The notes beneath the pieces were generated by a model. That model was not told the origin of the DNA. It searched no databases and saw nothing but the letters and a program-made list of their open reading frames with translations. The translations under genes and the position numbers were made by a program. A stretch of DNA of 64,000 nucleotides. Source: Chloroflexota bacterium. GTDB taxonomy: Bacteria > Chloroflexota > Limnocylindria > Limnocylindrales > CSP1-4. Each line of letters begins with the position of its first letter. Within the stretch, counting starts at the first letter, position 1. The stretch is from NCBI GenBank assembly GCA_042408535.1, contig JBHORA010000039.1, positions 3,419 to 67,418 on the forward strand, given 5' to 3'. Shown in pieces: positions 2,711 through 24,525 of this stretch.

Positions 2711-3796
2711 CTAGCCCCTGGCGTACGCCCTGACCATCGCGACGAGGGCGGCGGGGGCCGTCGCGGGCCCAACCCGCAGGCGAGGCACCAGCAGGCGGTT
2801 CGTGGACGACTCGGTCGCCCCCGGAACCGTCGTCGCCGCGAGCCAGTATCCGAGGCGCTGGAGGATGGCGAGGACCGTAGGACTCCAATTACCGAAGGGA
2901 TAGGCGAGCGTGACGGGCGCGACACCCGTCCAGGCGGCGATCATCCGTCCCGCTCGCGCGATCTCCGCGGCCGCCATCGTCGGCGAAATCGTCCCGAGCC
3001 CCACGTGATGCACGGTGTGGTTGGCGATCTCGTCGCCGGCCTGGGTCATGGCACACAGTTCGTCTGGCGTGAAGTACGGTGCTCTGCCGACCCGACCGGT
3101 GATGACGAAGAACGTCCCCGCGAACCCATAGCGTTCCAAGACGGGGAAAGCGTAGCGGTAGCCGTCACGGTAGCCGTCATCGAAGGTGACGACGAAGGTT
3201 CGCGCCGGCTCCGTCCGCCCGGCGGCCAGGTCGGCCGCGAGCTGGCGGAACGTGATCGCGTGCCACCCAGCAGCATGGAGGGCGGCCATCTGAGCTGCAA
3301 AAAGCTGCGGGGACACGATCAGGCTCCGCAACGAGTCGCCCGCCTCCGAAAGGGGCACGACGCGGTGGTACATGAGGACCGGTACGTGCTCGACGATGCC
3401 TGGGCTGCGCCAGGCGACCGTGGGGGACGCGGTCCCCGACGGGGGAGCACAACTGGGAGCCGGGACCGTGCCGGCGGCGCCTGATCCGGTCGTAGTTGCT
3501 CCACTGCCTGAGTGGTCGATGGGGCCAGGCTGCAGCCGGGACTGGGTCTCTGACGGTGCGGGGGAGGCCGGCATCGAGGCCGGCTGCGCCCCAGGGTGCC
3601 CGGCCGGTGACATGAGGATCGCCGCCGCGATGACGAACGCCAGGCTGGCGATGACGGCAGCGAGACCGCGCTGGCCGAGAGGACTCCCGAATCGGGTGGT
3701 TCGCCGCCGGGCAGGCCTCGGCCCGCTCCCGCCCGCGGCCTCATCGATCTCCACCAGCCCCTCGGGGCGCAACTTCCTCAGTACGAGCCGGACCAT
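2711..3796 (-). CDS. membrane-anchored polysaccharide deacetylase (NodB/CE4 domain)
   Basis: N-terminal TM (LAAVIASLAFVIAAAIL), then VPVLMYHRV, FVVTFDDGYRD and IANHTVHH motifs. Confidence 0.85.
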   Translation of the reverse strand: MVRLVLRKLRPEGLVEIDEAAGGSGPRPARRRTTRFGSPLGQRGLAAVIASLAFVIAAAILMSPAGHPGAQPASMPASPAPSETQSRLQPGPIDHSGSGATTTGSGAAGTVPAPSCAPPSGTASPTVAWRSPGIVEHVPVLMYHRVVPLSEAGDSLRSLIVSPQLFAAQMAALHAAGWHAITFRQLAADLAAGRTEPARTFVVTFDDGYRDGYRYAFPVLERYGFAGTFFVITGRVGRAPYFTPDELCAMTQAGDEIANHTVHHVGLGTISPTMAAAEIARAGRMIAAWTGVAPVTLAYPFGNWSPTVLAILQRLGYWLAATTVPGATESSTNRLLVPRLRVGPATAPAALVAMVRAYARG

Positions 3797-7710: not shown

Positions 7711-8128
7711 CAGTCGCCCAGTCCCTCCCTCGACGGAGCCGAGCGGGAAGGAACTGGGCTTGACGAGCCAGAGGATCAGCATCCGAGAAGGGTGACAGCG
7801 AGCCAGAGCGCGGCAACGGACCCGCCAAGGCGGTGCCTCGTCACCTGGGCACGCATGTTGTTCTGCCTCGCCTCGGTCCGAGGGTGTGAAGAGCAGCTCG
7901 ACGGTGACGCCGGCCTTGAGTTGCTCGGCGGACGAGTAGCCATCGAAGCTTGGGTCGGCGTCGAGCATCGCCGTGAACATCTTCGCCCCGGCGAGCATAC
8001 CGGCAGTCATCGCTCTCACGTTGGGGTCCCTGATGTATGCCGCGGCATCTGCGTCGCCGTTTGCCGCCCAGTGTCGGCAGCAGCCACCGCTGGGTACTCT
8101 GCCATGATCTGGTCGGCTGGTCGCTAGG

Positions 8129-11391: not shown

Positions 11392-11548
11392 ACCGTGGGT
11401 CCTGCCCGGGCGGCCAGATGATACCAGAGGGTGGCCGGTCGGACTGGTGACGAGTTCGGCCGGCCAGCGGGACGAGCCGTCGGGCTCACGAGCTCACGAG
11501 GCCGGTGGCGATCCTCCCTCCCCGTCGGTTCGCAAGTCGGGAGCAGCG

Positions 11549-11910
11549 TTAGGGGGGCCAACGGTAACTCGCCGCCATGACCCCGAAGGCGACCAGGAAG
11601 CCGGCCTCGTTGCCGAGGGCCCCGACGAGCCATCCCAACGCCGCCGACCAGACCGCCCCGACGACGAACATGACCGTGAAGGAGACGGCGAAGGCGACGC
11701 CCCGGATCGCCGGCCGGGCGACCTCGGCGAGGAGGGCTTGGAGGAGGGCACTCTCCTCGAAGAGGACGGCGCTCATGAAGCCGAGGGTGAGCCAGACGAA
11801 GAGGAGGTTCGAGCCGGCGAGGACGAAGGCGCCGAGGGCCGTCGCGGCGCGGACACAGGAGCCGATGACGACCGGCCGCGCAAACCACGAGGCCCGAGCG
11901 TCGGCCCGGG
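11549..11910 (-). CDS. integral membrane protein (start not identifiable; may be the frameshifted continuation of 11980-12192)
   Basis: ...[46 protein letters not shown]...[27 protein letters not shown]...: four hydrophobic helices, with no ATG/GTG/TTG upstream in frame. Confidence 0.4.
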
Positions 11911-11979
11911 CCTCGTGCGGGGAGGAGGAGGACTCGTTCGAACGTTCGGACGACGGGATGCCTCTGCCGAGGGCGAAGC

Positions 11980-12192
11980 CTACGGCGTAGCCGTCGGCGT
12001 TGGGCTCGCCATTGGCGTCGGCGTCGCCATTGGCGTCGGCGAGGGCTTGAGGCTCGCCGCCGGGCTCGGGGATACGACGGGCGCTGTCGAGGCACCCGGG
12101 CTGGCCGCCGACGGCTTCGGACTGGCGCCCGGGCCGCAGGCGGCGACGATGGAGCTTCCGATGATGACGGCTGCTGCGAGGCGTCGCTTCAT
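11980..12192 (-). CDS. lipoprotein signal peptide plus Pro/Thr/Ser linker (70 aa)
   Basis: GAAGGAGGTCAGCC-ATG; [20 protein letters not shown] lipobox. It ends inside an 18-bp tandem repeat. Confidence 0.5.
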
Positions 12193-12427
12193 GGCTGACC
12201 TCCTTCGTGCAAGCTGAACGAGCTCGGTTCGTCGAGCTCGGTGGTGGCGTGGCCGGCCGCTGGAGCCGGCAAGCGCGGGCGCCGAACGAACCCCGGCGCC
12301 GACGAAGGATGGCAGGCCGTCGATGAAGGAACGATGAAGACGGAGACCCCGCCGGCTTCGATAACGAAATCTGACCCGCTTCGCAACCGTCAGCCAACCC
12401 GGAGCGCGTACGATCGGCGATCCGGAG

Positions 12428-13216
12428 GTGATCGATATGCGCCTGCTCGTCGCCGAAGACGACCGGCGCCTCGCCGGTCTCCTCCGGCGCGGCCTGGAAG
12501 AAGAGGGCTACGCGGTCGACCTCGTCGGGACGGCGGAGGAGACCCGCTGGCTGGCGACCGAGGTCCCCTACGACACGATCGTCCTCGACGTCATGCTCCC
12601 CGACGGGGACGGCTTCGACGTTTGCCGGGAGCTCCGGGCCGCCGGTCGCTGGGCCCCGGTCCTCTTTCTGACCGCCCGCACGGCCGTCGCCGACCGGGTA
12701 CGCGGTCTCGATGGCGGCGGCGACGACTACCTCGTCAAGCCCTTCGAGTGGGACGAGCTCCTCGCCCGGATCCGGGCCCTCGTTCGCCGTGGAGCACAAC
12801 CGCGGCCGGCGACGATCGAGCTCGGCTCCTTCGTCCTCGACCCGGCGAGCCGGGAGGTTCGGATCGCAGGCAAGCGGATCGACCTCTCCGCCCGGGAGTT
12901 CGCCATCCTCGAGGTCCTCGCCCGCCACCCGAACGAGGTGCTCTCGCGGGCCGACATCCGGGAGGCCGTCTGGGACTGGGCCTTCGAGGGCCGCTCGAAC
13001 GTCATCGACGTCCACGTCGCATCCCTCCGCCGGAAGCTCGGCGGTCGCCCCGGCGCGCCGCGGATCGAAACCGTTCGCGGTGTTGGCTACGCCCTCCGGC
13101 CGCCCGCCGGCGCGCGACCTCGATGGGGTCCTCGAACCGGGGGTGAGGGGAGCGGCGGCCATGACGGAAGCCTCGACCCCTCGGTGACGTCCCGCCATCA
13201 CCCAGGCGGCCGGTGA
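12428..13216 (+). CDS. OmpR/PhoB-family response regulator
   Basis: MRLLVAEDD...DLVGTAEE...VLDVMLPDGDGF...DDYLVKPF, plus winged helix (LSAREFAILEVL...VIDVHVASLRRKL...VRGVGYAL). The stop overlaps the kinase start (GTGA). Confidence 0.9.
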   Translation: MIDMRLLVAEDDRRLAGLLRRGLEEEGYAVDLVGTAEETRWLATEVPYDTIVLDVMLPDGDGFDVCRELRAAGRWAPVLFLTARTAVADRVRGLDGGGDDYLVKPFEWDELLARIRALVRRGAQPRPATIELGSFVLDPASREVRIAGKRIDLSAREFAILEVLARHPNEVLSRADIREAVWDWAFEGRSNVIDVHVASLRRKLGGRPGAPRIETVRGVGYALRPPAGARPRWGPRTGGEGSGGHDGSLDPSVTSRHHPGGR

Positions 13217-14541
13217 GCCTCCGAGCTCGGCTCACCCTCTGGCTGGCGCTCGCCGTCACGAGCCTCGTCGTCGCCGCGGGAGGTCTCGTCTGGGTCTCCA
13301 TCGGCCAGCAGCTCCGACGCTCCCTCGACGAGACCATCCGGCTCCATGCCGAGAGCGTTGCGGCGGCCCTCGAGTCCGACCCGGACGCCCCGATCGACAT
13401 CCTGGCGAGCGGCCGGCCGGCGGTCTTCACCATCCTCTACGGTCGGGACGGAGCCCCGATCCGCCAGACGGCGATGGCGGCCGAGCTGCCAGGGGTGCCA
13501 CCACCGGGCCCGTCCGAGCTCGTCGTCGGCAACGAGCACTACGTCTTCTACGCCATCGATGGCCCGATGGGTCGAATCGTAACCGGGGCGACGACGAGCG
13601 GCATCGAGGAGACGCAGGCTGCGGTGACGCAGGATCTGGTGGCGGTCGGGCTCCTCGTTGCCGTGGTGGCCGTCGCCGGGACCTGGTGGCTCGTCGGCCG
13701 GGTGCTGGCTCCCCTCGCCGCCCTAGCGGCCGAGCTCGAGACGATCGAGCCCGACGAACTCGATCGCCCCTTCGTCGGTCGACCTGGACGGGACGAGGTC
13801 GGCCGCCTCACGCGGTCGATCGCTGGGCTTCTCGCCCGCCTCGACGAGGGGCGCCGCCGCCAGCAGGCCTTCGTGGCTGCCGCCTCCCACGATCTCCGAA
13901 CCCCGCTCGCCGCCCTCCGGACCGAGCTGGAACTCGCCCTCCGAGGCCGACCCGACGGAGCGAGGCTCCGCCAGGCCATCGAAGCCGCCCACGGCGATGC
14001 CGTCCGGCTCGGGCAGCTGGCCGACGGCCTCCTCGCCCTGGCCGAAGCTGAACCGGGAGGCCGGCCCCTGGCCCGAACCCGGGTCAGCCTCGAGGCCCTC
14101 CTCGAGGCGGCCGCCGACGACTGTCGGTCCCTGGCCGAGTCCAAGAAGGCGGCGATCGAGATCGTTGCTTCGGACGATGCGGTCGTCGTCGATCGGGTGC
14201 GCCTCGAGCAGGCGCTCCGGAACATGGTCGCCAACGCGGTCCGGTACTCCCCCGAGGGGGCCCCAGTCCGGATCGTGGCCGACGTAACGACGCGTCGGCT
14301 GCGGCCAGGCTTGCCGGGGCGGCGCTGGCTGCGGGTCGGCGTCGTCGACCGCGGGCCCGGCGTGGATCCGGCGGTCGAGGCCCGTCTCTTCCTCCCCTTC
14401 CCGCGGCGGAACGGTGAGGGTGAGGGAGCCGGGCTCGGTCTGGCGATCGCGGCGGCCGCCGTCCGAGCCCATGGCGGGGAGATCGGCTACCGACCCCTGG
14501 CAGAGGGCGGCTCGGAGTTCTGGTTCGCGGTCCCTTGCTGA
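13213..14541 (+). CDS. sensor histidine kinase (TM-HAMP-HisKA-HATPase)
   Basis: H-box AAASHDLRTPLAALRTELE; N-box LEQALRNMVANAVRYSP; G-boxes VVDRGPGV and GAGLGLAIA. Confidence 0.9.
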   Translation: MSLRARLTLWLALAVTSLVVAAGGLVWVSIGQQLRRSLDETIRLHAESVAAALESDPDAPIDILASGRPAVFTILYGRDGAPIRQTAMAAELPGVPPPGPSELVVGNEHYVFYAIDGPMGRIVTGATTSGIEETQAAVTQDLVAVGLLVAVVAVAGTWWLVGRVLAPLAALAAELETIEPDELDRPFVGRPGRDEVGRLTRSIAGLLARLDEGRRRQQAFVAAASHDLRTPLAALRTELELALRGRPDGARLRQAIEAAHGDAVRLGQLADGLLALAEAEPGGRPLARTRVSLEALLEAAADDCRSLAESKKAAIEIVASDDAVVVDRVRLEQALRNMVANAVRYSPEGAPVRIVADVTTRRLRPGLPGRRWLRVGVVDRGPGVDPAVEARLFLPFPRRNGEGEGAGLGLAIAAAAVRAHGGEIGYRPLAEGGSEFWFAVPC

Positions 14542-14782
14542 CAGTGGACACGGACCTGCCCAGATCAACGTCCTCGCTGCCAGCGAGGACGAGGGCGTGG
14601 TCAGGAACGCGAAAGCCGCCGTGCCCCGGGTGCACGTCCCCGGACCACCATTTCGTGTTCGTCGCCGACCGAAGCTGCCGACTCGGCCGCTCCCGTGGTC
14701 CCTGTGCCCCCGGTTTTCTGTTCTGTGGGCACGGCCCGGCCGCCGCCCAGCCCAGACGCTTGGAGGCCTGGGCGATCTCGGC

Positions 14783-14811
14783 TTGACCCACCGGCCGGGT
14801 CGGCATACGCT
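14783..14811 (+). promoter_or_regulatory. sigma-70-type promoter candidate (TTGACC - 17 nt - TACGCT)
   Basis: -35 at 14783-14788 and -10 at 14806-14811, placing the TSS a few nt before the riboswitch aptamer. Confidence 0.5.
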
Positions 14812-14819
14812 CGCCCTTC

Positions 14820-14881
14820 GGCGATGGCGTCCGCCGAGACGGTGTCCGTCTGAACCGCCCGCACGGGCTGATGGCTCCTGC
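14820..14881 (+). promoter_or_regulatory. fluoride riboswitch aptamer (crcB motif), copy 1
   Basis: GGCGAUGGCGUCCGCC / AGACGG-UGU-CCGUCU / GAACCGCCC-GCAC-GGGC / UGAUGGCUCCUGC. The blocks match the remembered B. cereus and T. petrophila fluoride aptamers. Confidence 0.8.
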
Positions 14882-14962
14882 ATCATTCTGCCGGGGCGTG
14901 ACGCTCCCGAAGAGGCGTCCCGAGGGCGCGTCGCGAACCCCGTCCCGAGAACGGAGGCTAGC

Positions 14963-15970
14963 GTGAGCGAGGCGAGACGGACGGCGTCGGCGGGCGACGA
15001 GGCGAGCCTGCCGGCCACGGCGGGCGGACGCTTCTGGTCGCGCCTGCAGGCGGCCGTCGGCCGAGCCATCGTCGGCGGAGGTGAGGCGCTCCGCTTCCTG
15101 ACGATCGCCCTTCTGGCCGAAGGCCATGCCCTCATCGAGGACGTCCCCGGGACCGGCAAGACGACCCTCGCCCGGGCCTTCGCCCGAGCCCTTGGCCTCT
15201 CCTTCGCCCGGGTCCAGGGCACCCCCGATCTCCTGCCCGGCGACGTGACTGGGAGCAGCGTCTTCGAGGCCGGTCGCTTCCGCTTCGTGCCGGGGCCGAT
15301 CTTCGCCAACGTCCTCCTCGTCGACGAGATCAACAGGGCGACGCCTCGGACCCAGTCGGCGCTCCTCGAGGCGATGCAGGAGCGCCAGGTTTCCATCGAC
15401 GGGACGACCCACCGTCTCCCGACCCCCTTCCTCGTCCTGGCGACCGAGAACCCGATCGAGCTCGAAGGAACGTTCGCGCTGCCAGAGGCCCAGCTCGACC
15501 GCTTTCTCGTCCGGACGAGGCTCGGCTACCCCGACGAGGTCGAGGAACGCCGGATCGCCGCCCTCTACCGCGACGGTCGGCTCCCGATCGAGGACGTGCC
15601 CCAGATCACGAGCTCGGATGAGCTCGGATCGCTCATTGCCGCCGCCGCCCGCGTCACGGTAGCCGAGGACGTCGAGCACTACATCGTCGCCCTCGTCCGA
15701 GCTACCCGCGACCACCCCGACGTCCGGCTCGGGGCGAGCCCGCGGGCGAGCGTCGCCCTCTACCGGGCAAGCCAGGCGGCCGCCCTCCTCGCAGGGCGCG
15801 ACTTTGCCCTCCCCGACGACGTCGCGGCGGTCGCGCCGGCTGTCCTCGTCCACCGAATCCTCGTCGACGTCGATCGGGAACTCCGGGGAGCGAGCGCCGA
15901 GCAGATCATCGCTGACGTCCTCGACCGAACGCCGGCGCCGCCGATCGGCCTTGCTCGCTCCGGGCACTGA
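14963..15970 (+). CDS. moxR: MoxR-family AAA+ ATPase
   Basis: GGAGG 5 nt before GTG 14963; EDVPGTGKTTLARAFARAL, LLVDEINRATPRTQSALLEAMQE, ATENPIELEGTFALPEAQLDRF. Confidence 0.9.
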   Translation: MSEARRTASAGDEASLPATAGGRFWSRLQAAVGRAIVGGGEALRFLTIALLAEGHALIEDVPGTGKTTLARAFARALGLSFARVQGTPDLLPGDVTGSSVFEAGRFRFVPGPIFANVLLVDEINRATPRTQSALLEAMQERQVSIDGTTHRLPTPFLVLATENPIELEGTFALPEAQLDRFLVRTRLGYPDEVEERRIAALYRDGRLPIEDVPQITSSDELGSLIAAAARVTVAEDVEHYIVALVRATRDHPDVRLGASPRASVALYRASQAAALLAGRDFALPDDVAAVAPAVLVHRILVDVDRELRGASAEQIIADVLDRTPAPPIGLARSGH

Positions 15971-15989
15971 AGCGGGAGGTTGACCAACG

Positions 15990-17243
15990 ATGCCTCGTGG
16001 GGTGCTCGTCCCGGGTCCCTCCGGCCTCGTCGTCGCCGTTCTCGTCGGCCTCGGGCTCTGGAGCGGCGCGACGGGCCTCGTCTTCGTCGGTCTCATCGTC
16101 GGCCTCACGACCTGGCTCCGGACCGTCTGGTCCAGGCGCGGCCCGGTGGCCCTCCTCTACCGCCGCGAGCTCGCCTCCGAGCGGGCCGTCTGGGGCGATC
16201 GGGTCCCCCTCACCCTCGTCGTCGAGAACCGGAAGATCCTTCCCCTCGCCTGGCTCCGCACCGACGACTTCGTTGGCGACGAGCTCGTCCTCGATGGGAT
16301 CGCCACGGTGCCCACGGAGCGACCCGGGATCGCCAGCCTCCGAATGACCTGGTCCCTGGCGCCGTACGAGGAAGTCCGGCGGCAGCTGGCCATCGTCGCC
16401 GAGCGTCGGGGGCGGTTCCGGTTCGAGTCCGTCGCGCTGACCGTCGCTGACCTCTTCGGCCGGTCGGCGACGACCGTTGAGCGCCTACTCCCGGCGACGC
16501 TCGTCGTCCGGCCGCGGACGGTCCCGGTTCGGCTCGGCGGCCCGGCCGTCCTCCCCCTTGGCCCGCGCCGGCTCCGGCGCGGGCTCGTCGAGGACCCCGC
16601 CCTCTTCGCCGGCATCCGGCCCTTCCAGCGCGGGGATCCGCGGCGCCGCGTCCACGAGCGGGCGACGGCCCGGCTCGGTCGACCGGTGAGCAAGCGCTTC
16701 GAGCCGTCGGCGGCCCGCGACGTGGTCATCGCCCTCGACGCCCAAACGGTGCCGGGACCGGTCTGGCTCCTCCAGTGGGATGACGACCTCGTCGAAAGCC
16801 TCGCCGTGGCGGCAGGATCGCTCGCCCGCCGGCTCCTCGACGATGGTGCCGCTTGTGGCCTGGCCGTGAACGCCTGGACGTACCAGCCTGACCGGATCGG
16901 GTTCGTCCCGCCGAGGGCGGGCCCTGGCCAGCTCGCCCGGATCCTCGATCTCCTCGGCCGGCTGACGACCGTTCCCTCGATGCCGTACCCTCGGCTCCTC
17001 GGGGCCATCGGCCGGCGGATCAGCGCCGGGTCCCTTGTCATGACCCTGAGCAGTCGTGATCCGAGCGACGCCCTCCCCGTCCTCCGGCGTCTCCGATCCA
17101 GCGGCTTCGAGATCCTCCACATCGCCCTCGGCCCGGAGGCGACGGCGCACGCGGCCCTGGTTCGCCGGTTCGGCCTGCCGGCCCGCGTTGCCCGTCTCGC
17201 CCCCGACTGGCGGACCTGCCATGCCATCGAGTTGGCGAGCTAA
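15990..17243 (+). CDS. DUF58 domain protein (vWA-like partner of MoxR)
   Basis: Two N-terminal TM helices, then ...FAGIRPFQRGDPRRRVHERATARLGRPVSKRFEPS...VIALD, typical of DUF58. Confidence 0.85.
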   Translation: MPRGVLVPGPSGLVVAVLVGLGLWSGATGLVFVGLIVGLTTWLRTVWSRRGPVALLYRRELASERAVWGDRVPLTLVVENRKILPLAWLRTDDFVGDELVLDGIATVPTERPGIASLRMTWSLAPYEEVRRQLAIVAERRGRFRFESVALTVADLFGRSATTVERLLPATLVVRPRTVPVRLGGPAVLPLGPRRLRRGLVEDPALFAGIRPFQRGDPRRRVHERATARLGRPVSKRFEPSAARDVVIALDAQTVPGPVWLLQWDDDLVESLAVAAGSLARRLLDDGAACGLAVNAWTYQPDRIGFVPPRAGPGQLARILDLLGRLTTVPSMPYPRLLGAIGRRISAGSLVMTLSSRDPSDALPVLRRLRSSGFEILHIALGPEATAHAALVRRFGLPARVARLAPDWRTCHAIELAS

Positions 17244-18609
17244 GCTCGGCTGGCGACTCCTCGGGCTCCTCCCGGCCGCTGCCGCAGCGACCGCGGAAGG
17301 GGCGTGGGTCGCTGTCTGGTACGCCGCGCTCGGTGCCGCCGATCGCCCGGCGCGGCCGCTTGGCCTCATCACCTTCGTGGGGGCGGCAGCGGCCGGTCTC
17401 GTCCTCGCCCGGAGGCTCGAGGGCAGGGGGCGGCTGGACCGACGTGCAGAACGGGTCGTTCGCCGGCTCATGCTCGGTGCGGCCATCGGTGGCGCGGCAG
17501 CGCTCGGTCTCGCCCTCGAGGGCCCCGTCGGGAGCGGTGACGTTGCCGACTGGATCGGTGGGCTCGCCGCCGGCGCCCGCCGGGGCGAGGTCGGCGGCCT
17601 TCTCCTCGGCGTCGCCGCGTGGCGGGGGACGCGCCACGCCGCTCCGGAGCGGGACGACCTCGTGACGGCCGGCCTCCTCGGCTGGGGAGCGCCGCTCCTC
17701 GGCATCCCGTGGCTCGTCGGGGGCCTCCGGCCCGGGCCCGCCTTCGTGGCGAACGCTCTCGTCGCGACCCTCGTCTTCGTGGCGGCGAGCCTCGTCGCCA
17801 TCGGCCTGACCCGTCTGGAGGCCCTCGCCCAATCGGCCGGCCTCGACTGGCGGCGGAACCGAGCCTGGCTCGTCCTCCTCGTCGCGGTCGTCGCGTCGGC
17901 GAGCCTCCTCGCCCTCCCGGCGGCGGTCCTCCTCGGGGCATCCGTCGACGCCCTCCTGGCCGGCCTCGCCGGTCCGGTGGCTGTCAGCGTCGAGGTCGCC
18001 GAACGGGCCGTCGGGCTCCTCGGGAGGAGCGTCGGCTCGACGCTCGGGACAGCCATGCCTGGTTCGCCCGGCGAGGTCGGCGGCACCTCGGGGGTCGGCG
18101 ACCTCGTGCCGAACCTGTCGATCCCGGGCGTCCTCGCCGGCCTCGCGGCGGTCCTCTTCGCCATCGTTGTCCTCGTCGCCGCCCACCGTTTCTGGAGCCG
18201 GGTCCGCGGCGGTCGGCCGTCGCCGACGCCACCGCTGCCGATCGTCGAGGAACGGCACGTCCGGCCCCCGCGACCGAGGGTCCGTCTCGCTCTCCCGAGG
18301 CTCGCCCTCCGCCTGCCGCGTTTCCGCGGCGGGCCACGCACAGCGACGGAGGCGTACCTCGACCTGGCGGCCAGGCTCGGGCCGGAAGGAGAGCTCGCCC
18401 GCCGCCTCGGCGAGTCGCCGTCCGGACACGCCCGCCGTCTCCGGAAGCGACATCTCGGCTCCGTCCGCCTCGACCTCCTCGCCGCCGACGTCGCCCTCGA
18501 GCGGTTCGCCGGCCGCGGTCTGCCGCGACGGGAGGTGGCGCGGGCCATCGACAGGGCACGGGACCCGCGGCTCGCTGGCGATGGGCGGTCGGGAGGAAGC
18601 CGTGGCTGA
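17221..18609 (+). CDS. polytopic membrane protein with DUF4129-like C-terminus
   Basis: ATG 17221 overlaps the DUF58 end by 23 nt. Multiple TM helices; C-terminus TEAYLDLAARLG...ESPSGHARRL...ERFAGRGL. Confidence 0.7.
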   Translation: MPSSWRAKLGWRLLGLLPAAAAATAEGAWVAVWYAALGAADRPARPLGLITFVGAAAAGLVLARRLEGRGRLDRRAERVVRRLMLGAAIGGAAALGLALEGPVGSGDVADWIGGLAAGARRGEVGGLLLGVAAWRGTRHAAPERDDLVTAGLLGWGAPLLGIPWLVGGLRPGPAFVANALVATLVFVAASLVAIGLTRLEALAQSAGLDWRRNRAWLVLLVAVVASASLLALPAAVLLGASVDALLAGLAGPVAVSVEVAERAVGLLGRSVGSTLGTAMPGSPGEVGGTSGVGDLVPNLSIPGVLAGLAAVLFAIVVLVAAHRFWSRVRGGRPSPTPPLPIVEERHVRPPRPRVRLALPRLALRLPRFRGGPRTATEAYLDLAARLGPEGELARRLGESPSGHARRLRKRHLGSVRLDLLAADVALERFAGRGLPRREVARAIDRARDPRLAGDGRSGGSRG

Positions 18610-18649
18610 CCGGTCGTTCGACACGGGCGGCGCGGACGAGGGGACGACC

Positions 18650-19909
18650 ATGCGCAGCGTCGAGGTTGGGCCGGGATCGAAGGCGACGGCCGGGCCGGTT
18701 CCGCCGAACGGCGCCGCCTCCGGGTGGCTGACCCCCGGCGTCCGAGGCATCGGGGCGGCCAGTCTCCTCTCCGACCTCGGTCACGAGGTCCCGACAACGC
18801 TCCTGCCGGCCTTTCTCTCGTCCGCCCTCGGTGCGCCGCCGGCCGCCCTCGGCCTCATCGAGGGGCTGGCCGACGGGCTCTCGGGCCTGGCCAAGATCGC
18901 AGGTGGGCCGTTTGCTGACGAACCCGAGCGACGTCGGTCGATCGCCGTCGGCGGCTACACCCTGGTCGCGGTCCTGTCGGCGGCGATCGGGCTCGCCACC
19001 GCCGTCTGGCAGGTGGCGATCCTGCGAACCGGTGCCTGGGTCTCGCGTGGCTTTCGGACCCCGGCCCGGAACGCCCTCCTCGCCGACGCCGTCGACCGTC
19101 GGGTGTACGGCCGGGCCTACGGCTTCGAGCGGGCGATGGACAACCTCGGAGCGGTGCTCGGTCCACTCGCGGCGCTCGCCCTCGTGAGCCTCCTCGACGT
19201 CCGAAGGGCGATCCTCGTCTCGGTCGTCCCGGGCCTCCTCGCCAGCCTCGCCATCCTGTACGCCATCCGCCACATCCGTGCAGCGCCCCCCGGAGCGACG
19301 GCCCGTCCCCGACGCCGAGGTTTCGATCTCCCCGTCCGCTCCCTTCTTCGGGGTCGCCTCCGCCGCGCCTTCGTCGTCGTGGGGGCCTTCGAAGTCGGCA
19401 ACGTGGCGGCGACGCTCCTCATCCTTCGAGCCACGGAGGTCTTCACGGCGGCAGGCCGAGCCGACGCGGCACAGCTCGCCGTCGCCCTCTACGTCGCTTA
19501 CAACCTGGCTGGGACGCTGGCGAGCATTCCCTTCGGGCGACTCGGCGACGCTCGCGGCTTCACAGCGCCGCTCCTCGCCGGATTCGCCCTCTTCGCTGGG
19601 GCCTACGGTGCCTTCGCCCTCGGGCCGGCCGACCCGCTCCTCCTGGGTGCCGCCTTCGTGGCCGCTGGGGTCGGCATCGGCATCGTCGAAACGGGTGAGC
19701 ATGCCATCGTCGCTTCCGCTGCCCCGCCGGAGGCGCGAGGCTCGGCCTTCGGGCTCCTGGCCGGCGCCCAGAGCTTCGGCGATTTTGCCGCCAGCGGGAT
19801 CGTCGGCATCCTCTGGAGCCTCGGCGGAGGGACGATCGCCTTCGCCTATGCCGCCGCCTGGATGGTGATCGCCTTCCTTCTCGCCGCGCTCGTCCGGCCG
19901 GGCCGCTGA
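18650..19909 (+). CDS. MFS transporter
   Basis: GIGAASLLSDLGHEVPTTLLPAFL..., roughly 12 hydrophobic segments, with the GRLGDARG loop motif. Confidence 0.85.
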   Translation: MRSVEVGPGSKATAGPVPPNGAASGWLTPGVRGIGAASLLSDLGHEVPTTLLPAFLSSALGAPPAALGLIEGLADGLSGLAKIAGGPFADEPERRRSIAVGGYTLVAVLSAAIGLATAVWQVAILRTGAWVSRGFRTPARNALLADAVDRRVYGRAYGFERAMDNLGAVLGPLAALALVSLLDVRRAILVSVVPGLLASLAILYAIRHIRAAPPGATARPRRRGFDLPVRSLLRGRLRRAFVVVGAFEVGNVAATLLILRATEVFTAAGRADAAQLAVALYVAYNLAGTLASIPFGRLGDARGFTAPLLAGFALFAGAYGAFALGPADPLLLGAAFVAAGVGIGIVETGEHAIVASAAPPEARGSAFGLLAGAQSFGDFAASGIVGILWSLGGGTIAFAYAAAWMVIAFLLAALVRPGR

Positions 19910-19966: not shown

Positions 19967-19995
19967 TTGACCGGCGTCGCCGTGGCGCCTATCCT
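19967..19995 (+). promoter_or_regulatory. sigma-70-type promoter candidate (TTGACC - 17 nt - TATCCT)
   Basis: -35 at 19967-19972 and -10 at 19990-19995, which is 7 nt before the second aptamer. Same architecture as at 14783. Confidence 0.5.
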
Positions 19996-20002
19996 TTTTG
20001 CC

Positions 20003-20068
20003 GGCGATGGTGTCCGCCGAGACGGGACGCTCCGTCTGAACCGCCCGATCGGGCTAATGGCCCCTGAC
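20003..20068 (+). promoter_or_regulatory. fluoride riboswitch aptamer (crcB motif), copy 2
   Basis: GGCGAUGGUGUCCGCC / AGACGG-GACGCU-CCGUCU / GAACCGCCC-GAUC-GGGC / UAAUGGCCCCUGAC. A competing hairpin at 20059-20088 sequesters the 3' pseudoknot strand. Confidence 0.8.
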
Positions 20069-20122
20069 CGATGGTTCGGTCTGGGGCCGTTCGATTCCCC
20101 CGGCCAGACGGAGGTGTCTCGC

Positions 20123-21412
20123 GTGGACAACCTGTATGTCGTCGCTGCACTCTGGATCGGCATCGCCCTTGTCGCTAGCCTCGTCTCGATCCGGCTCGGC
20201 GTCTCGGTCGCGCTCGTCGAGATCGCCCTTGGGGTCGCCGCCGGGAACGCCATCGGGCTGACGACGACGCCGTGGGTGGACGTTCTGGCCGGCTTCGGCT
20301 CGGTCATCCTGACCTTCCTCGCCGGGGCCGAGATCGACCCAGGAGCGCTCCGCCGACACCTGAAGGCGAGCCTCGCCATCGGGGCGGTCTCCTTTGCCGC
20401 CCCCTTTGTCGCCGCCTGGGCCGTCGCCTCCTCCGTCTTCTGCTGGGACCTGGCGGCCAGCCAGATCGCCGGCGTCGCCCTGTCGACGACCTCGGTCGCC
20501 GTCGTCTATGCGGTCATGATCGAGTCTGGTTTGGCGAGCGAAGAGCTCGGGAAGCTCATCCTGGCGGCCTGCTTCGTCACCGACCTCGGCACGGTCCTCG
20601 CCCTCGGGATCCTGTTCGCCGACGTCAGTCCCCTCCTGCTCCTCTTCGGGGCGGCGACGGCGGGCGTCCTCCCCGTCGTCGGGCGGGCGACGCGCTGGTT
20701 CGTCGAGCGCTTCCCGAACCGTGTCTCGGAGCCAGAGACGAAGTTCCTCCTCCTCGTCCTCTTCGGCCTCGGCGGGCTCGCCGCAGCCGCCAGGAGCGAG
20801 GCCGTCCTGCCGGCCTATCTCCTCGGACTCGCCGTGGCCGGCGCCCTGGCCGAGGCCCGGGTCCTCGTCCACCGGATCCGGGCGATCGCCTTCAGCCTCC
20901 TCACTCCCTTTTACTTCATCAGGGCGGGTCTGTATGTCTCGCTGCCGGCCGTCGTGGCAGGAGCCGGACTCGTTGCCGCCTTCTTCGTGATCAAGGTTGG
21001 GTCGAAGGTCGTGGGCGTCTGGCCGACGACGCGGGCCTTCGGGCTCCCCGCCCGGGAGTCGACGTACGCGACGCTCCTCATGTCGACGGGGCTCACCTTC
21101 GGGACGATCTCGTCCCTCTTCGGCCTCAGCCACGGCTACATCGACCAGGCCCAGTACACGGTCCTGGTGACCGTCGTCATCCTGTCGGCCGTGGCGCCGA
21201 CTCTCGTGGCGACGACCTTCTTTAGCCCGGTCCTCGCCGGCGAGGCCGAGCTCGAGGAGTTCGATGCGGCCGAGGAGATCGACGCTGGCCTCCTGCCGCG
21301 GCCGGGATCGGCCGAGGAGATCGGCGCGGCGGCGGCCTCCAGGAGGGCTGGCTCGGGCCGCCAGCTGGCGAACGATGAGCGCGTCGCAGTCGGCGAGGCG
21401 GAATCCGCCTAG
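20123..21412 (+). CDS. cation:proton antiporter (Na+/H+ exchanger family, CPA type)
   Basis: GGAGG before GTG 20123; LTFLAGAEID, ALSTTSVAVVYAVM, about 11-12 TM helices and an acidic C-terminal tail. Confidence 0.85.
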   Translation: MDNLYVVAALWIGIALVASLVSIRLGVSVALVEIALGVAAGNAIGLTTTPWVDVLAGFGSVILTFLAGAEIDPGALRRHLKASLAIGAVSFAAPFVAAWAVASSVFCWDLAASQIAGVALSTTSVAVVYAVMIESGLASEELGKLILAACFVTDLGTVLALGILFADVSPLLLLFGAATAGVLPVVGRATRWFVERFPNRVSEPETKFLLLVLFGLGGLAAAARSEAVLPAYLLGLAVAGALAEARVLVHRIRAIAFSLLTPFYFIRAGLYVSLPAVVAGAGLVAAFFVIKVGSKVVGVWPTTRAFGLPARESTYATLLMSTGLTFGTISSLFGLSHGYIDQAQYTVLVTVVILSAVAPTLVATTFFSPVLAGEAELEEFDAAEEIDAGLLPRPGSAEEIGAAAASRRAGSGRQLANDERVAVGEAESA

Positions 21413-21449
21413 AGGCGCCGGCACCAGGGCGCCTGGCGACGTCACGCCG

Positions 21450-23081
21450 ATGGCCCCCGAGCCGGGCGGCGCCCGGACGGATGAGGCCAGCCAGGGGGGA
21501 CCCCGGGGCATCGACGTCGGCTGCGTCGTCTGCCGCTTCGTGGCCGAGGCGGTCGAGCGCCGGATCTTCTTCCTCTTCGCCGAGGCGGTCGGTGAGTCGT
21601 GGTTCGTCGCCAAGATGCGGGCTGGTGGGTTCTGCACGGCCCACGTCCGGCACCTCGTCTCGGCCGGCCGCGGTCCGCGGCTGACGGGCCCCTTCGAAGA
21701 CGTCCTCAATGGCTGGCTCGCCCGGCGGCGAGACGCCGGCGGGACGGCTCTGCCCTCGGTCGGCGAGGCTTGCCCGATCTGCGAGACCGCGACCTGGGCG
21801 ACGAACCACGCCCTCGGGCTCCTCGCCTCCGGCGACGCGCGGCGGATCGAGGTCGGCCTCGGCCGATCCGGCCCGCTCTGTCTCATCCACCTCGATCGGC
21901 TCATCGACTGGATGCCCTGGCAAGACCAGGTTGCGGTCGCCCGGCGCTGGGCGGAGCGGCTCCTGGAGGCCGTCTGGCTGGCGAGCGAGGTGGATGCCGC
22001 GGCCCCGGACGCCGCTGCTCATCGCCTCGCTGCGGATCGCCCCGCCGCGGCCCCGGACGCCGCCGCCGATCGCCTCGCCGCCGATCGCCTCGCCGCCGCC
22101 GTCGCTGTCCTCGCCGGCCCCTCTCCGATGGTTCGGCAGCCGGAGGTGAGCCCGGTCGCTCAAGTGCGCCCAGGGCGGACCGTCTCCACTCCGGAGGGAC
22201 GCCGATCGGGCGCCGCGGCTGGCTGGCACGACGGACTCCTCACCGAGGCCGGCCTGCTTGCCGAGCTCGCGGCGGGGCGCTGCCCGGTTTGTACCGCCGG
22301 TATCGCCGCCCAACAGCGACTCCTCACCTGGCTCGCCGAGCCCGCCCCGACGCGCGACCACCGCGACCTCGATGCCCTCTGTGGCGACCACCTCCGCCAG
22401 CTCGCCCGGCTCGCCCCGGCGAGTGCCGCCTCGGCGACCCGCAGCGCCCTCGAGCGCCGCCTGGCGATGCTCGCGGCGCTGCCGACCGTCGCCGACCGGC
22501 CACCGCTCCAGCTCGCCGAGCGGGTCCGCTGGGCATGGCGGCGGGCTCGGGCGCGCGGGCCGAACGAGCGGGGCGGTTCGCTCAGCATCGGGGTCCGGGC
22601 CGTCTGGCGCGCCCTTCGCTCCCCCCGCGACTTCGTCGCCGAGCCGCTCCGCCGAGCTCGCGTCGCCGCCGATCGGGAGTGCGTCGCCTGCCGCGCCGCG
22701 ATCACCGCCCGTCGTCGCTCGCTCGCCCTCCTCGGGGCGACCCTCCGGAGCCGAGGCGGGCGCGACCGATTCGAACGGAGCGGTGGCCTCTGCCTCCGGC
22801 ACACCGCCGCTGCCGCGGTCGCCGGGCCGGCCCTCGGGCCGGTCGGTCTCGCCCTCGTCGGGGCGGTCGCTGAGGGCCGAGTCGTTGGCGTCCGTTTCGA
22901 GCTCGAGGAGGCGCTGCGGAAGTCGAGCTGGTCGGTCCGGTACGAACCGGTCGGACCCGAGGTCACAGCCTGGCGGCGGGCGATCCTCTTGGTCCTCGGC
23001 AACGCCGCGCTTCCCGATGTCGACGACTCGCTTGCCGTCGCGGCGGCCGACGAGACCGACCGCCCGCGACGGGCCGTCTGA
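21450..23081 (+). CDS. Cys-rich protein with four CxxC...C-x2-H modules (internally duplicated)
   Basis: CVVCR..(33)..GFCTAHVRHL; CPICE....GPLCLIHLDRL; CPVCT....ALCGDHLRQL; CVACR....GGLCLRHTAA. An Ala/Asp repeat linker joins the two halves. The C-terminal ELEEALRKSSWSVRYEP..EVTAWRRAI recalls DUF6062-type proteins (from memory). Confidence 0.7.
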   Translation: MAPEPGGARTDEASQGGPRGIDVGCVVCRFVAEAVERRIFFLFAEAVGESWFVAKMRAGGFCTAHVRHLVSAGRGPRLTGPFEDVLNGWLARRRDAGGTALPSVGEACPICETATWATNHALGLLASGDARRIEVGLGRSGPLCLIHLDRLIDWMPWQDQVAVARRWAERLLEAVWLASEVDAAAPDAAAHRLAADRPAAAPDAAADRLAADRLAAAVAVLAGPSPMVRQPEVSPVAQVRPGRTVSTPEGRRSGAAAGWHDGLLTEAGLLAELAAGRCPVCTAGIAAQQRLLTWLAEPAPTRDHRDLDALCGDHLRQLARLAPASAASATRSALERRLAMLAALPTVADRPPLQLAERVRWAWRRARARGPNERGGSLSIGVRAVWRALRSPRDFVAEPLRRARVAADRECVACRAAITARRRSLALLGATLRSRGGRDRFERSGGLCLRHTAAAAVAGPALGPVGLALVGAVAEGRVVGVRFELEEALRKSSWSVRYEPVGPEVTAWRRAILLVLGNAALPDVDDSLAVAAADETDRPRRAV

Positions 23082-23091
23082 GGAGACTGAC

Positions 23092-24525
23092 GTGGTCGAG
23101 AGGGCCGGGATGCCCGGGATGGAGATCGGACCGAGCGCTGCCTTCGTCGACCCGGCGATGGAGTCCGGGCCGCCCTCCGAGGGACGGCTCGTCCTCGTCG
23201 AGGTCGAGCGGGCGACGGGCCCAGGGCCCGCCGTCGAGTTCGACGATCGCGGTCGGCCGCTCGTCCGCAGCTTCCGGGCCGAGGGGATCTGGCTGGGGTT
23301 CGACCACGGCTCGGTCCCCGAGACCGACGACGGTCGTGGCCGCACCCTTGCCGCCCTCGTCGCCCTCCCGGGCTCCACGTTCCCGGGCTGCCGGATCGCG
23401 GCCAGGCTCACCGGCGCCCTCGTGTCGGGGGACCGCGTCGTCCTGCTCGCTGCCCTGCCTGGCTGGCCGCCGCCCGCCATCGGCCTGGCCCGGGCGGCCG
23501 CGGCCCTCGGCGACGCGGCGCACCTCGAGGCCGAAGCGGCCGCCGACCTCCTCCGTCGGGCCCGCCTCCGGTACCGCGAGCGGGTCCGGGCCGGTCGCCC
23601 GACCGGAGGCCGGGCCTGGGCGGCGATCGGCCGGCTGCCGCCGGAGCTGGCCCGCTTCGCCACGCCCCACTCGCCGGCCGAGTACCGACTCGCCCAGCTT
23701 CCGCCGCGACTCGTCCGCGGCCTCGAGGGGATCCTCGACGACGACGAGCGGATCCTCGCCTGGGTCCGCCGCCCGGCGATCCTCGAGGGCGGACTCCGCG
23801 AGACCCTTCGGCGGGCGGGTCGCCGCGTCGATCGTCGCGAGGCGGTCCTCGTCCTCACCGATCGCCAGCTCGTCTGGGTCGTCGACCACGCCGAGCCCGG
23901 GCGCTACCTCGTCGAGTGGGGCGTCGACCTCGAGCTCGTGCCCCTCGAGCGGTTGATCCAAGTTCGGGCTGCCACGACCGCGGACGTCATCCGGCTCACC
24001 GTCGAGACCGACGCCGGGGGATCGGCGAGGAGCCGGTCCTACGAGCTCCCGGCCGAAGCTACCGCCGAGACCGAGGTCGTCGTCGCCCTCCTCGAGCGGT
24101 TCACGCCGGAGGCCGCCGATGGCCGCCCGGTCCGTCGCTACGAGCTCGGGGCGCGCCAGCCGGCGCTCGAAGAGGCGGACCGGTTCCACCAGCGGGAGGT
24201 CGCGGTCGCCTTCCTCGAGCGAGCGGGGGAGCTCGGGGAGGTCCTCGGCTTCCTCTTCAGCCCCCGTCGGCCGGGGACGCGCGAACCCTCGGCCCTCGCC
24301 GTCTTCGAGTGGGGCGCCGCGCTCCTCACGCCGGACGCGGTCGTTCGGACGTCGGCGACCGACCTCGCGGCCCTTGGCCTCACCCTCTCGCCGCTCGTGG
24401 GCCGCCTCTCGCTCGTGCCGGGACCGACGTTGACGTACCCGGCACCGTTCTCGACGACGGGTACCGCCGTCGTCCGGCTCCTCCGACGGGCGGCGGCGAA
24501 CGCGCGCCCGGGCCCTTCCCGCTGA
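23092..24525 (+). CDS. two-domain protein: degenerate inorganic-pyrophosphatase-like N-terminus plus bacterial PH-like C-terminal region
   Basis: AGGAG 7 nt before GTG 23092. LVLVEVERATGPGPAVEFDDRGRPLVRSF...FDHGSVPETDDGRGRT..PGCRIAARLTGAL follows the family I PPase pattern with acidic residues replaced. ERILAWVRRP...AVLVLTDRQLVWVVD is PH-like. Confidence 0.65.
   Translation: MVERAGMPGMEIGPSAAFVDPAMESGPPSEGRLVLVEVERATGPGPAVEFDDRGRPLVRSFRAEGIWLGFDHGSVPETDDGRGRTLAALVALPGSTFPGCRIAARLTGALVSGDRVVLLAALPGWPPPAIGLARAAAALGDAAHLEAEAAADLLRRARLRYRERVRAGRPTGGRAWAAIGRLPPELARFATPHSPAEYRLAQLPPRLVRGLEGILDDDERILAWVRRPAILEGGLRETLRRAGRRVDRREAVLVLTDRQLVWVVDHAEPGRYLVEWGVDLELVPLERLIQVRAATTADVIRLTVETDAGGSARSRSYELPAEATAETEVVVALLERFTPEAADGRPVRRYELGARQPALEEADRFHQREVAVAFLERAGELGEVLGFLFSPRRPGTREPSALAVFEWGAALLTPDAVVRTSATDLAALGLTLSPLVGRLSLVPGPTLTYPAPFSTTGTAVVRLLRRAAANARPGPSR

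Follow-up and report, generated by a model that had tools for sequence, protein, structure and literature searches.

The 64,000-nucleotide (nt) stretch of DNA analysed here, which we call the window (positions 3,419 to 67,418 of contig JBHORA010000039.1, assembly GCA_042408535.1, from a Chloroflexota bacterium), carries at 21450-23081 on the forward strand an open reading frame (ORF) of 543 amino acids (aa) plus a stop. The encoded protein holds four cysteine- and histidine-bearing modules, and its gene is the second of three behind a fluoride riboswitch; its place is probably in a branch of the fluoride stress response that has not yet been described. The riboswitch aptamer at the head of the probable operon (19994-20073, +) matches the Rfam model RF01734 (crcB motif) over its full length with 41.3 bits and an expectation value (E) of 5e-8, the gathering score being 34 bits, which agrees with an earlier note, made from the letters of this DNA alone, that had described the protein as riboswitch-controlled. 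A consensus scan places a putative promoter-like site, TTGACC-17-TATCCT, just before the riboswitch (19967-19995, +); it is the sole such site in 5 kb, where 0.1 would be expected. Behind the riboswitch come, on one strand, a CPA-type Na_H_Exchanger gene (20123-21412, +; PF00999, 121.6 bits; GGAGG 9 nt before a GTG start), the 543-aa gene, and a gene for a 477-aa partner (23092-24525, +; GAGGAG before a GTG start). The gaps between them are 37 nt and 10 nt, a site scan finds no terminator-like site between the three genes, and the gene that follows the partner is convergent. The riboswitch is thus 1.4 kb upstream of the 543-aa gene, on the same strand and with one gene between, and from its class we infer that the gene would be switched on by rising cytoplasmic fluoride.

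The window has a G+C (GC) content of 72%, and at 21450-23081 several frames, the opposite strand included, contain long ORFs. When the window is translated, the 543-aa frame shows no internal stop; its GC by codon position (0.87 at the third position, GC3, and 0.61 at the second, GC2) is like that of the neighbour genes, and conserved homologues exist for this frame only and not for the overlapping ones. This ORF is a real, conserved gene. The antisense ORF at 21222-23858 (-), of 878 aa, and the ORFs in alternative frames were rejected as high-GC artefacts on account of their codon-position GC and because no conservation speaks for them. The start codon of the 543-aa ORF is uncertain. An in-frame ATG at 21375 would give a protein of 568 aa (25 residues more) and an overlap of 38 nt with the exchanger gene; the same 38-nt overlap is present in the syntenic locus L001 (we number loci from L001 and genomes from G000, the genome of the window), and the N-terminal pattern MSxxSxxRRxxP read from that ATG (21375-21449) resembles the N-termini of close homologues. 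The added residues would be disordered, because the predicted local distance difference test (pLDDT) score is below 50 at the N-terminus of the model described below.

We scanned the protein for the pattern C-x2-C-x(28-40)-C-x2-H and found exactly four modules, all of the form CxxC-x29-34-CxxH, at residues 25-65, 108-147, 278-314 and 411-451. These are module 1, C25-x2-C28-x33-C62-x2-H65 (21522-21644, +), module 2, C108-x2-C111-x32-C144-x2-H147 (21771-21890, +), module 3, C278-x2-C281-x29-C311-x2-H314 (22281-22391, +) and module 4, C411-x2-C414-x33-C448-x2-H451 (22680-22802, +), and together they use all 12 cysteines of the protein. Shuffling the sequence 20,000 times with its composition kept gave a single module in 15 cases and never a larger number. 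Nine homologues of 37-65% identity came out of a word-indexed search of 5.8 billion proteins, none of the nine bearing a name or a Pfam domain, and in their alignment with the 543-aa protein all 16 Cys/His ligands are invariant. When 1.84 billion cluster representatives were searched exhaustively with a profile, the family grew to 1,473 relatives with E of 1e-3 or less, of which 528 have E of 1e-10 or less; most are 430-530 aa long, some 214-275 aa. We measured conservation on an alignment of 74 diverse members, which are 22-66% identical to the 543-aa protein: each of the 16 ligand positions, in all four modules, is either invariant or at least 90% conserved. From the second ligand to the third, the median spacing is 32-34 residues; it is tight (32-34, median 33-34) in modules 1, 2 and 4, and is 29 in module 3 of the present protein. 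Besides the ligands, the sole strongly conserved block in the 74 sequences is a C-terminal helix-loop-helix motif, ELEEALRKSSWSVRYEPVGPEVTAWRRAILLVLG in our protein (22899-23000, +), with the consensus ELxEAxRKxSWxxRYEPxGxExxAWxRA. Within it W494, R497 and E504 are invariant, and conservation is at least 90% at E484, L485, E487, R490, E499, G502, A507, W508, R510 and G517.

The earlier note had likened this C-terminus to DUF6062-type proteins and had read the protein as a tandem duplication of a two-module unit. The Pfam profile of that family, PF19538, reaches the 543-aa protein at 22.1 bits only (E 1.1e-4), through residues 23-72 on profile positions 18-67, that is through module 1 alone, and this falls short of the gathering threshold of 27 bits. 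The matches of all ten close homologues are weak and sub-threshold too (best E 1.4e-5), and an NCBIfam scan of the protein gives no match. Among the relatives found by the profile of the target family, however, some do pass the PF19538 cut-off: P0033 with 42.9 bits, P0120 with 49.6 and P0019 with 30.6. A Binatia orthologue with the motif KSSWSVRYEP scores 56 bits, and for a single-unit protein of 265 aa from locus L051 the score is 64 bits, the match spanning positions 17-234 of the 243 in the profile. The DUF6062 profile itself holds two modules, at positions about 18-67 and 123-175. Both halves of the 543-aa protein align to the 265-aa L051 protein, with E 2e-10 and 2e-12; its C-terminal motif aligns to the C-terminus of that protein and corresponds to the C-terminal portion of the family profile. 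The second unit keeps this motif, and the first unit has lost it. Since each half aligns to a single-unit DUF6062 protein, we conclude from the sequence that the 543-aa protein is a fused, divergent, tandem double DUF6062 with two modules per unit, so that the family name and the duplication proposed in the note both stand. Pfam records no function for DUF6062, and a literature search found no paper naming it.

The note had also taken an Ala/Asp-rich internal repeat as the joint of the duplication. The repeat itself is real: it is a 48-bp tandem repeat in 2.2 copies at 21996-22100 (+), encoding residues 183-217 (Tandem Repeats Finder score 161, 87% matches). Its reading as the duplication joint was rejected, the repeat being absent from homologues. 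In the alignment with the nine homologues, this region is a linker of variable length and sequence, or is missing altogether, and its pLDDT is lowered. Lying in such a linker, the repeat is not a signature of the ancient duplication; it is, to judge by the alignment, a later, local and genome-specific expansion.

We then considered what the four modules may look like and what they may bind. The AlphaFold2 model computed from the 74-sequence alignment has a mean pLDDT of 87.6 and a predicted template modelling (TM) score of 0.87. It is wholly alpha-helical, with disorder confined to the N-terminus and to residues 236-254. The eight CxxC or CxxH pairs are all placed alike, the first ligand just before a helix and the second in its first turn, with pLDDT above 90; the helices begun in this way are 26-46 and 63-71 (capped by module 1), 109-127, 145-154, 279-296, 312-321, 412-431 and 449-457. 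The model thus suggests that each module is a pair of helices clamped at their N-termini. Together with the conservation of the 16 ligands, this supports the four Cys3His sites that the note had put forward. When Pfam and NCBIfam matches of the protein and its close homologues were examined, no iron-sulphur (Fe-S) family was among them, CDGSH included. A sequence-profile search of the PDB with the full family matched the zinc-binding C+ form of ribosomal protein bS18 from mycobacteria (5v93_r) over module 2 with E 0.005, and mitochondrial bS18b over the region of module 4 with E 0.05. Most probably each Cys3His site holds one structural Zn2+ that staples a helix pair; we favour zinc because of the knuckle-like consensus CPxC...GxCxxH, the helix N-cap positions of the ligands, the analogy with bS18 and the absence of an Fe-S signature among the matches.

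The link with fluoride does not depend on the window only. The orthologues come from Chloroflexota metagenome-assembled genomes (MAGs) and one Binatia MAG, and a fluoride riboswitch lies upstream on the same strand in 8/8 orthologue loci that have enough upstream sequence, two of these being sub-threshold. The score is at or above the gathering score in the window and in L001, L002, L004, L007 and L009, while the elements of L045 (5380-5461, +) and L047 (6691-6767, +) score 29.6-30 bits against 34 and occupy the exact leader position. The latter two could be divergent aptamers that default thresholds overlook, or aptamers in decay.

We extended the comparison, which the note had proposed as a check, to two phyla. 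In a sample of 401 Chloroflexota genomes, at least 126 have a family member (E up to 1e-10) and at least 135 have a fluoride riboswitch. At least 19 of the 126 family loci listed have a riboswitch on the same strand within 10 kb upstream, where about 0.06 would be expected from the density of riboswitches; this is an enrichment of about 300-fold over chance. In at least 11 of those 19 loci the riboswitch is 51-129 nt upstream, and five more of the loci listed have one nearby in another orientation. The second sample consisted of 201 genomes of the phylum to which the Binatia locus belongs. DUF6062 scores above the Pfam cut-off in ten of them; all ten have fluoride riboswitches, and in eight a riboswitch lies within 3 kb upstream of the DUF6062 gene on its strand. 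The membership of this family in the fluoride regulon is therefore strongly supported, and it is apparently undescribed. The fluoride genes that a review of 2024 (PMC11139923) connects with riboswitches are those for exporters, Na+/H+ antiporters, pyrophosphatase, HAD phosphatases, enolase, formate hydrogen lyase and chorismate mutase; a DUF6062-like protein is not among its gene classes, the supplementary gene list of Baker et al. 2012 lying outside this comparison. Our literature search found no paper that pairs a fluoride riboswitch with a cysteine-rich protein, and the one paper it found that joins a fluoride riboswitch and MoxR is an unrelated genome description.

The partner gene starts 10 nt behind the stop codon of the 543-aa gene. 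Its product, the 477-aa protein, has no Pfam match, and no match to Pyrophosphatase even at E up to 5. In its AlphaFold model (pLDDT 85), however, the N-terminal domain has the fold of a family I inorganic pyrophosphatase: the best Foldseek match has E 2.5e-7 and probability 1.00, the TM-score normalised to the target is 0.53-0.56, and the top 50 matches are 50 pyrophosphatases. The sequence-profile match to that family is weak (E 0.034), and the catalytic combination of D-x-D-x-x-D (DGDPxD) with Lys/Tyr residues is not kept, the equivalent stretch reading DDGxGRxL in 38 homologues. Since the fold is present and the aspartates of DGDPxD are lost, sequence and model together indicate that the partner is a pseudo-pyrophosphatase followed by beta-rich domains. 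These last domains look PH-like. The partner gene adjoins the double DUF6062 gene in at least 12 loci, namely L001-L005, L007, L009-L012, L047 and L048, and the stop and start codons of the two often overlap. Homologues of the partner also stand without the DUF6062 gene directly behind fluoride riboswitches, in L067 and in the Chloroflexota genomes G160, G387, G217 and G337. Near the lone partner gene of L067 we noticed a MutS-domain-V pair.

Other neighbours recur as well. Upstream of the operon, the window contains a sister operon (14811-19909, +) with its own riboswitch (14811-14887, Rfam 51.1 bits), followed by genes for a MoxR AAA+ protein (Pfam AAA_3), a DUF58-like protein, a DUF4129-like protein and a major facilitator superfamily (MFS) transporter (MFS_1). 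In relatives, the genes of the sister operon and the double DUF6062 gene are joined in one operon. In L002, for instance, a single riboswitch is followed by nine genes in one orientation: exchanger, CrcB, DUF190/CBS, a 42-aa ORF, MoxR, a 410-aa gene, DUF4129, the double DUF6062 gene and the partner. The MoxR-DUF58-DUF4129 triad stands directly before the double DUF6062 gene in L002, L003, L009, L010 and L048, directly after a riboswitch-led four-module paralogue in L057, L059 and L062, and directly before or after a family gene in L066. An exchanger of 55-79% identity occurs in the same or an adjacent operon in the window, L001, L002, L004, L007, L009, L045, L051, L052, L054, L055 and L063-L065. 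The neighbours in L004 include enolase, NUDIX, MFS and two MutS-domain-V pairs; the latter (1-2946 and 11442-14578) flank a fluoride cluster composed of an enolase fragment, exchanger, DUF190/CBS, NUDIX, MFS, double DUF6062 and partner genes. Some loci have several family paralogues in tandem. In the second phylum the neighbours are dynamin-like nucleoside triphosphatases of the GTPase type, a Na+/H+ exchanger, DUF4129, and Zn-ribbon-HEAT proteins. The note had guessed at a role in metal or redox protection, or in sensing, for or against which the results do not speak; this conserved neighbourhood points rather to co-operation of the 543-aa protein with nucleoside triphosphatase (NTPase) machines, the exchanger and the pseudo-pyrophosphatase.

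A few loci are worth describing for themselves. The Binatia MAG carries a fluoride island (L014, 1-7211) with three riboswitches in 3.7 kb. These would drive a large GTPase-like ORF, the genes for the orthologue (a 526-aa double DUF6062 protein) and an AAA_16 ATPase, and the genes for a 368-aa DUF6062-like coiled-coil protein and enolase; a second large GTPase-like ORF comes after the enolase gene. Both of these ORFs look dynamin-like by eye from their sequence. At L051 (5370-11017, -), in the complete genome G171, a riboswitch is followed by genes for a Na_H_Exchanger, a universal stress protein (USP) and the 265-aa single-unit DUF6062 protein, and then by a gene for a molybdopterin enzyme of formate-dehydrogenase-like type. 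An in-frame stop near 7910-7923, which may be a selenocysteine TGA, interrupts the frame of this last gene. In two genomes of the second phylum, small Zn-ribbon and HEAT_2 proteins of 127-136 aa are encoded directly after riboswitch-led double DUF6062 genes (L069 3984-4367; L070 4882-5292, -). The two fluoride riboswitches of the window genome, G000, both lie in the window, and neither CrcB/Fluc (PF02537) nor CLC (PF00654) was detected in this 92%-complete assembly, which may reflect an assembly gap. The transporter that matters for fluoride could be the exchanger (20123-21412) or the MFS transporter (18167-19909); alternatively, the assembly may lack the exporter gene. If the absence is not an assembly gap, the two operons are the whole recognisable fluoride response of G000.

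Taken as a whole, these results lead us to lean, though by no great degree, towards the following explanation: the 543-aa protein, a soluble, all-helical double DUF6062, would be a metalloprotein switched on by fluoride and serving as a scaffold or adaptor for NTPase machines. It would be non-catalytic and would act beside fluoride-induced P-loop NTPases, this being the weakest step; the machine would be MoxR-DUF58-DUF4129 here, and dynamin-like GTPases, AAA_16 or MutS-domain-V pairs elsewhere. The translationally linked pseudo-pyrophosphatase would take part, and the complex would protect or restore Mg-dependent phosphoryl-transfer proteins or membrane functions poisoned by fluoride. The C-terminal loop ELxEAxRKxSWxxRYEPxGxE would be the likely contact or ligand site. 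We favour a scaffold or adaptor because the protein has no recognisable catalytic motif or fold and because its neighbours are near-constantly NTPases, exchangers and a pseudo-enzyme whose active counterpart is a classic target of fluoride. It is known that MoxR/vWA-type AAA+ systems with client or adaptor proteins, such as the Rubisco activase CbbQ-CbbO and NorQ-NorD, load enzymes with metals or free them of inhibitors. One may then imagine, as a speculation to which we give little credence, that DUF6062 is the client-recognition or adaptor subunit of an ATP/GTP-driven "de-fluoridase" or reactivase: once induced by fluoride, it would dock fluoride-poisoned Mg-dependent phosphoryl-transfer enzymes or membrane transporters onto MoxR-DUF58-DUF4129 (elsewhere onto dynamin-like or MutS-like NTPases), the pseudo-pyrophosphatase would recognise or trap a Mg-F-(pyro)phosphate, and the machine would strip off the metal-fluoride inhibitor as CbbQO removes sugar phosphates. 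If this were true, the reactivase would provide a fluoride resistance independent of export, which could be the main one in G000, where no CrcB or CLC was found.

Several observations weigh against the scaffold explanation. The metal, taken to be Zn from the sequence and the model, may instead be Fe or Fe-S. The lone sequence link to a known zinc site is not robust: a profile of 62 stacked modules recovers no bS18 at E up to 10, and because of this we keep bS18 only as an analogy in ligand spacing, one that favours Zn, and not as a homology. No fold match in the PDB offers a functional lead, Foldseek finding there no structure that resembles the model (best E 0.05, TM about 0.1). Induction by fluoride is inferred from an RNA motif. 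About 100 of the 126 Chloroflexota family loci listed have no riboswitch nearby among the matches listed. Finally, the companion genes differ between lineages, and in at least 15 loci the DUF6062 gene comes first after the riboswitch or has no other obvious gene beside it there; variable companions and this leading position argue for an autonomous activity and against an obligate adaptor.

They keep alive a role of its own for the protein, as sensor, binder or regulator. An autonomous role would suit a protein that directly binds or buffers fluoride, metal-fluoride complexes or displaced divalent metals in the cytoplasm, maybe through its Glu/Arg-rich C-terminal loop (conserved E484, E487, E499, E504, R490 and R497) and with the pseudo-pyrophosphatase, which keeps the fold without the aspartates of DGDPxD, trapping a Mg-F-(pyro)phosphate. 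The lack of a visible CrcB or CLC exporter in G000 would fit, but an exporter may be missing from a genome that is only 92% complete. Moreover, sequestering fluoride one to one would protect poorly at millimolar concentrations, no protein is known to bind the free ion in that way, and the Cys3His sites are coordinatively saturated, so that such a buffer seems quite improbable to us. Another possibility is that the Cys3His sites hold Fe-S clusters or a redox-active or pH-labile metal (compare mitoNEET and the 3Cys-1His [2Fe-2S] site of IscR) and that the protein senses the acidification or oxidative stress linked to HF and signals to the exchanger or other partners. Cys3His sites with a terminal C-x2-H are also met in labile Fe-S proteins, and no neighbour is as constant as the exchanger. 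Under fluoride stress the cytoplasm turns acid, and among riboswitch-linked gene classes that of the Na+/H+ antiporters ranks second in frequency (PMC11139923). Against this, the consensus CPxC...G-x-C-x2-H, with its ligands on helix N-termini, resembles a zinc knuckle, no CDGSH or other Fe-S family of Pfam is matched, and a chain with four independent sites of equal spacing is what one would rather expect of structural staples; hence we regard a sensor as unlikely, if still worth bearing in mind.

If the sites do bind zinc, the protein might instead bind nucleic acids, as a riboswitch-controlled secondary regulator of unlinked genes or RNA. It is very basic, with an isoelectric point (pI) of 10.2 (family median 9.0; 8.9 in one genome of 50% GC), sites of the CCCH type are common in nucleic-acid binders, and module 2 is weakly like bS18, which binds rRNA; a fluoride-responsive regulation that does not use riboswitches also exists, its agent not being identified (PMC11139923). 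But some family members are acidic (pI 6.0-6.9), the bS18 match is the fragile one discussed above, and neither a helix-turn-helix nor another known DNA- or RNA-binding domain appears in the Pfam and NCBIfam scans. Foldseek against the PDB gives no match to a nucleic-acid-binding fold, and the tandem paralogues of some loci would be unusual for a regulator, all of which leaves a nucleic-acid binder with a slender chance. The large number of loci without a riboswitch among the matches listed could, on the other hand, mean that the link with fluoride is incidental and that we are dealing with a general stress or housekeeping zinc protein travelling with exchanger or MoxR genes; the riboswitch-free genome G044 indeed has a distant four-module homologue and a partner-like neighbour. 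This we consider very improbable, in view of the 300-fold enrichment, of the riboswitches found directly upstream (51-129 nt) in Chloroflexota loci and of the independent replication of the pattern in a second phylum.

Fluoride riboswitches mark genes that are needed when fluoride accumulates, and the well-understood ones among these encode exporters and replacement enzymes. The DUF6062-type family is large (at least 1,473 clusters at 50% identity) and has no known function, solved structure or detectable fold relative. If its members and their neighbours act together, they would form a second layer of fluoride defence, independent of export. This would be relevant to fluoride toxicity and to fluoride-tolerant hosts for the degradation or synthesis of organofluorine compounds, and it would help to assign a role to the obscure MoxR-DUF58-DUF4129 triad.

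It remains to compare the protein with known systems. At the level of the sites, its spacing C-x2-C-x33-C-x2-H differs from the pattern of CDGSH/mitoNEET proteins, whereas this ligand pattern is shared with bS18 in its C+ form, an accepted zinc-binding protein (PMC6094098); unlike C+ bS18, however, our protein is a large helical one and is not ribosomal. At the level of the family, it resembles DUF6062 (PF19538) in its unit, which consists of two CxxC...CxxH modules followed by a C-terminal helix-loop-helix motif, the motif being lost from its first unit. It differs in that two units are fused, giving 543 aa where the family has about 243, and in an insertion of about 90 helical residues between modules 3 and 4.

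At the level of the regulon, the protein is neither a transporter nor a recognisable enzyme, unlike the known members of the fluoride-riboswitch regulon (Fluc/CrcB, CLC-F, Na+/H+ antiporters, enolase, pyrophosphatase, formate hydrogen lyase and others; Baker et al. 2012 as summarised in PMC11139923). Its gene stands, like theirs, behind a bona fide aptamer, with a Na+/H+ exchanger gene beside it, and related loci also hold CrcB, DUF190/CBS, enolase, NUDIX, MutS-domain-V and USP genes. Concerning the MoxR/vWA systems, the likeness of MoxR-DUF58-DUF4129 comes from gene context, and in other lineages DUF6062 pairs with dynamin-like GTPases or stands alone; what brings the family close to these systems is that, in many genomes, DUF6062 genes lie immediately beside MoxR (AAA_3) and DUF58 genes.

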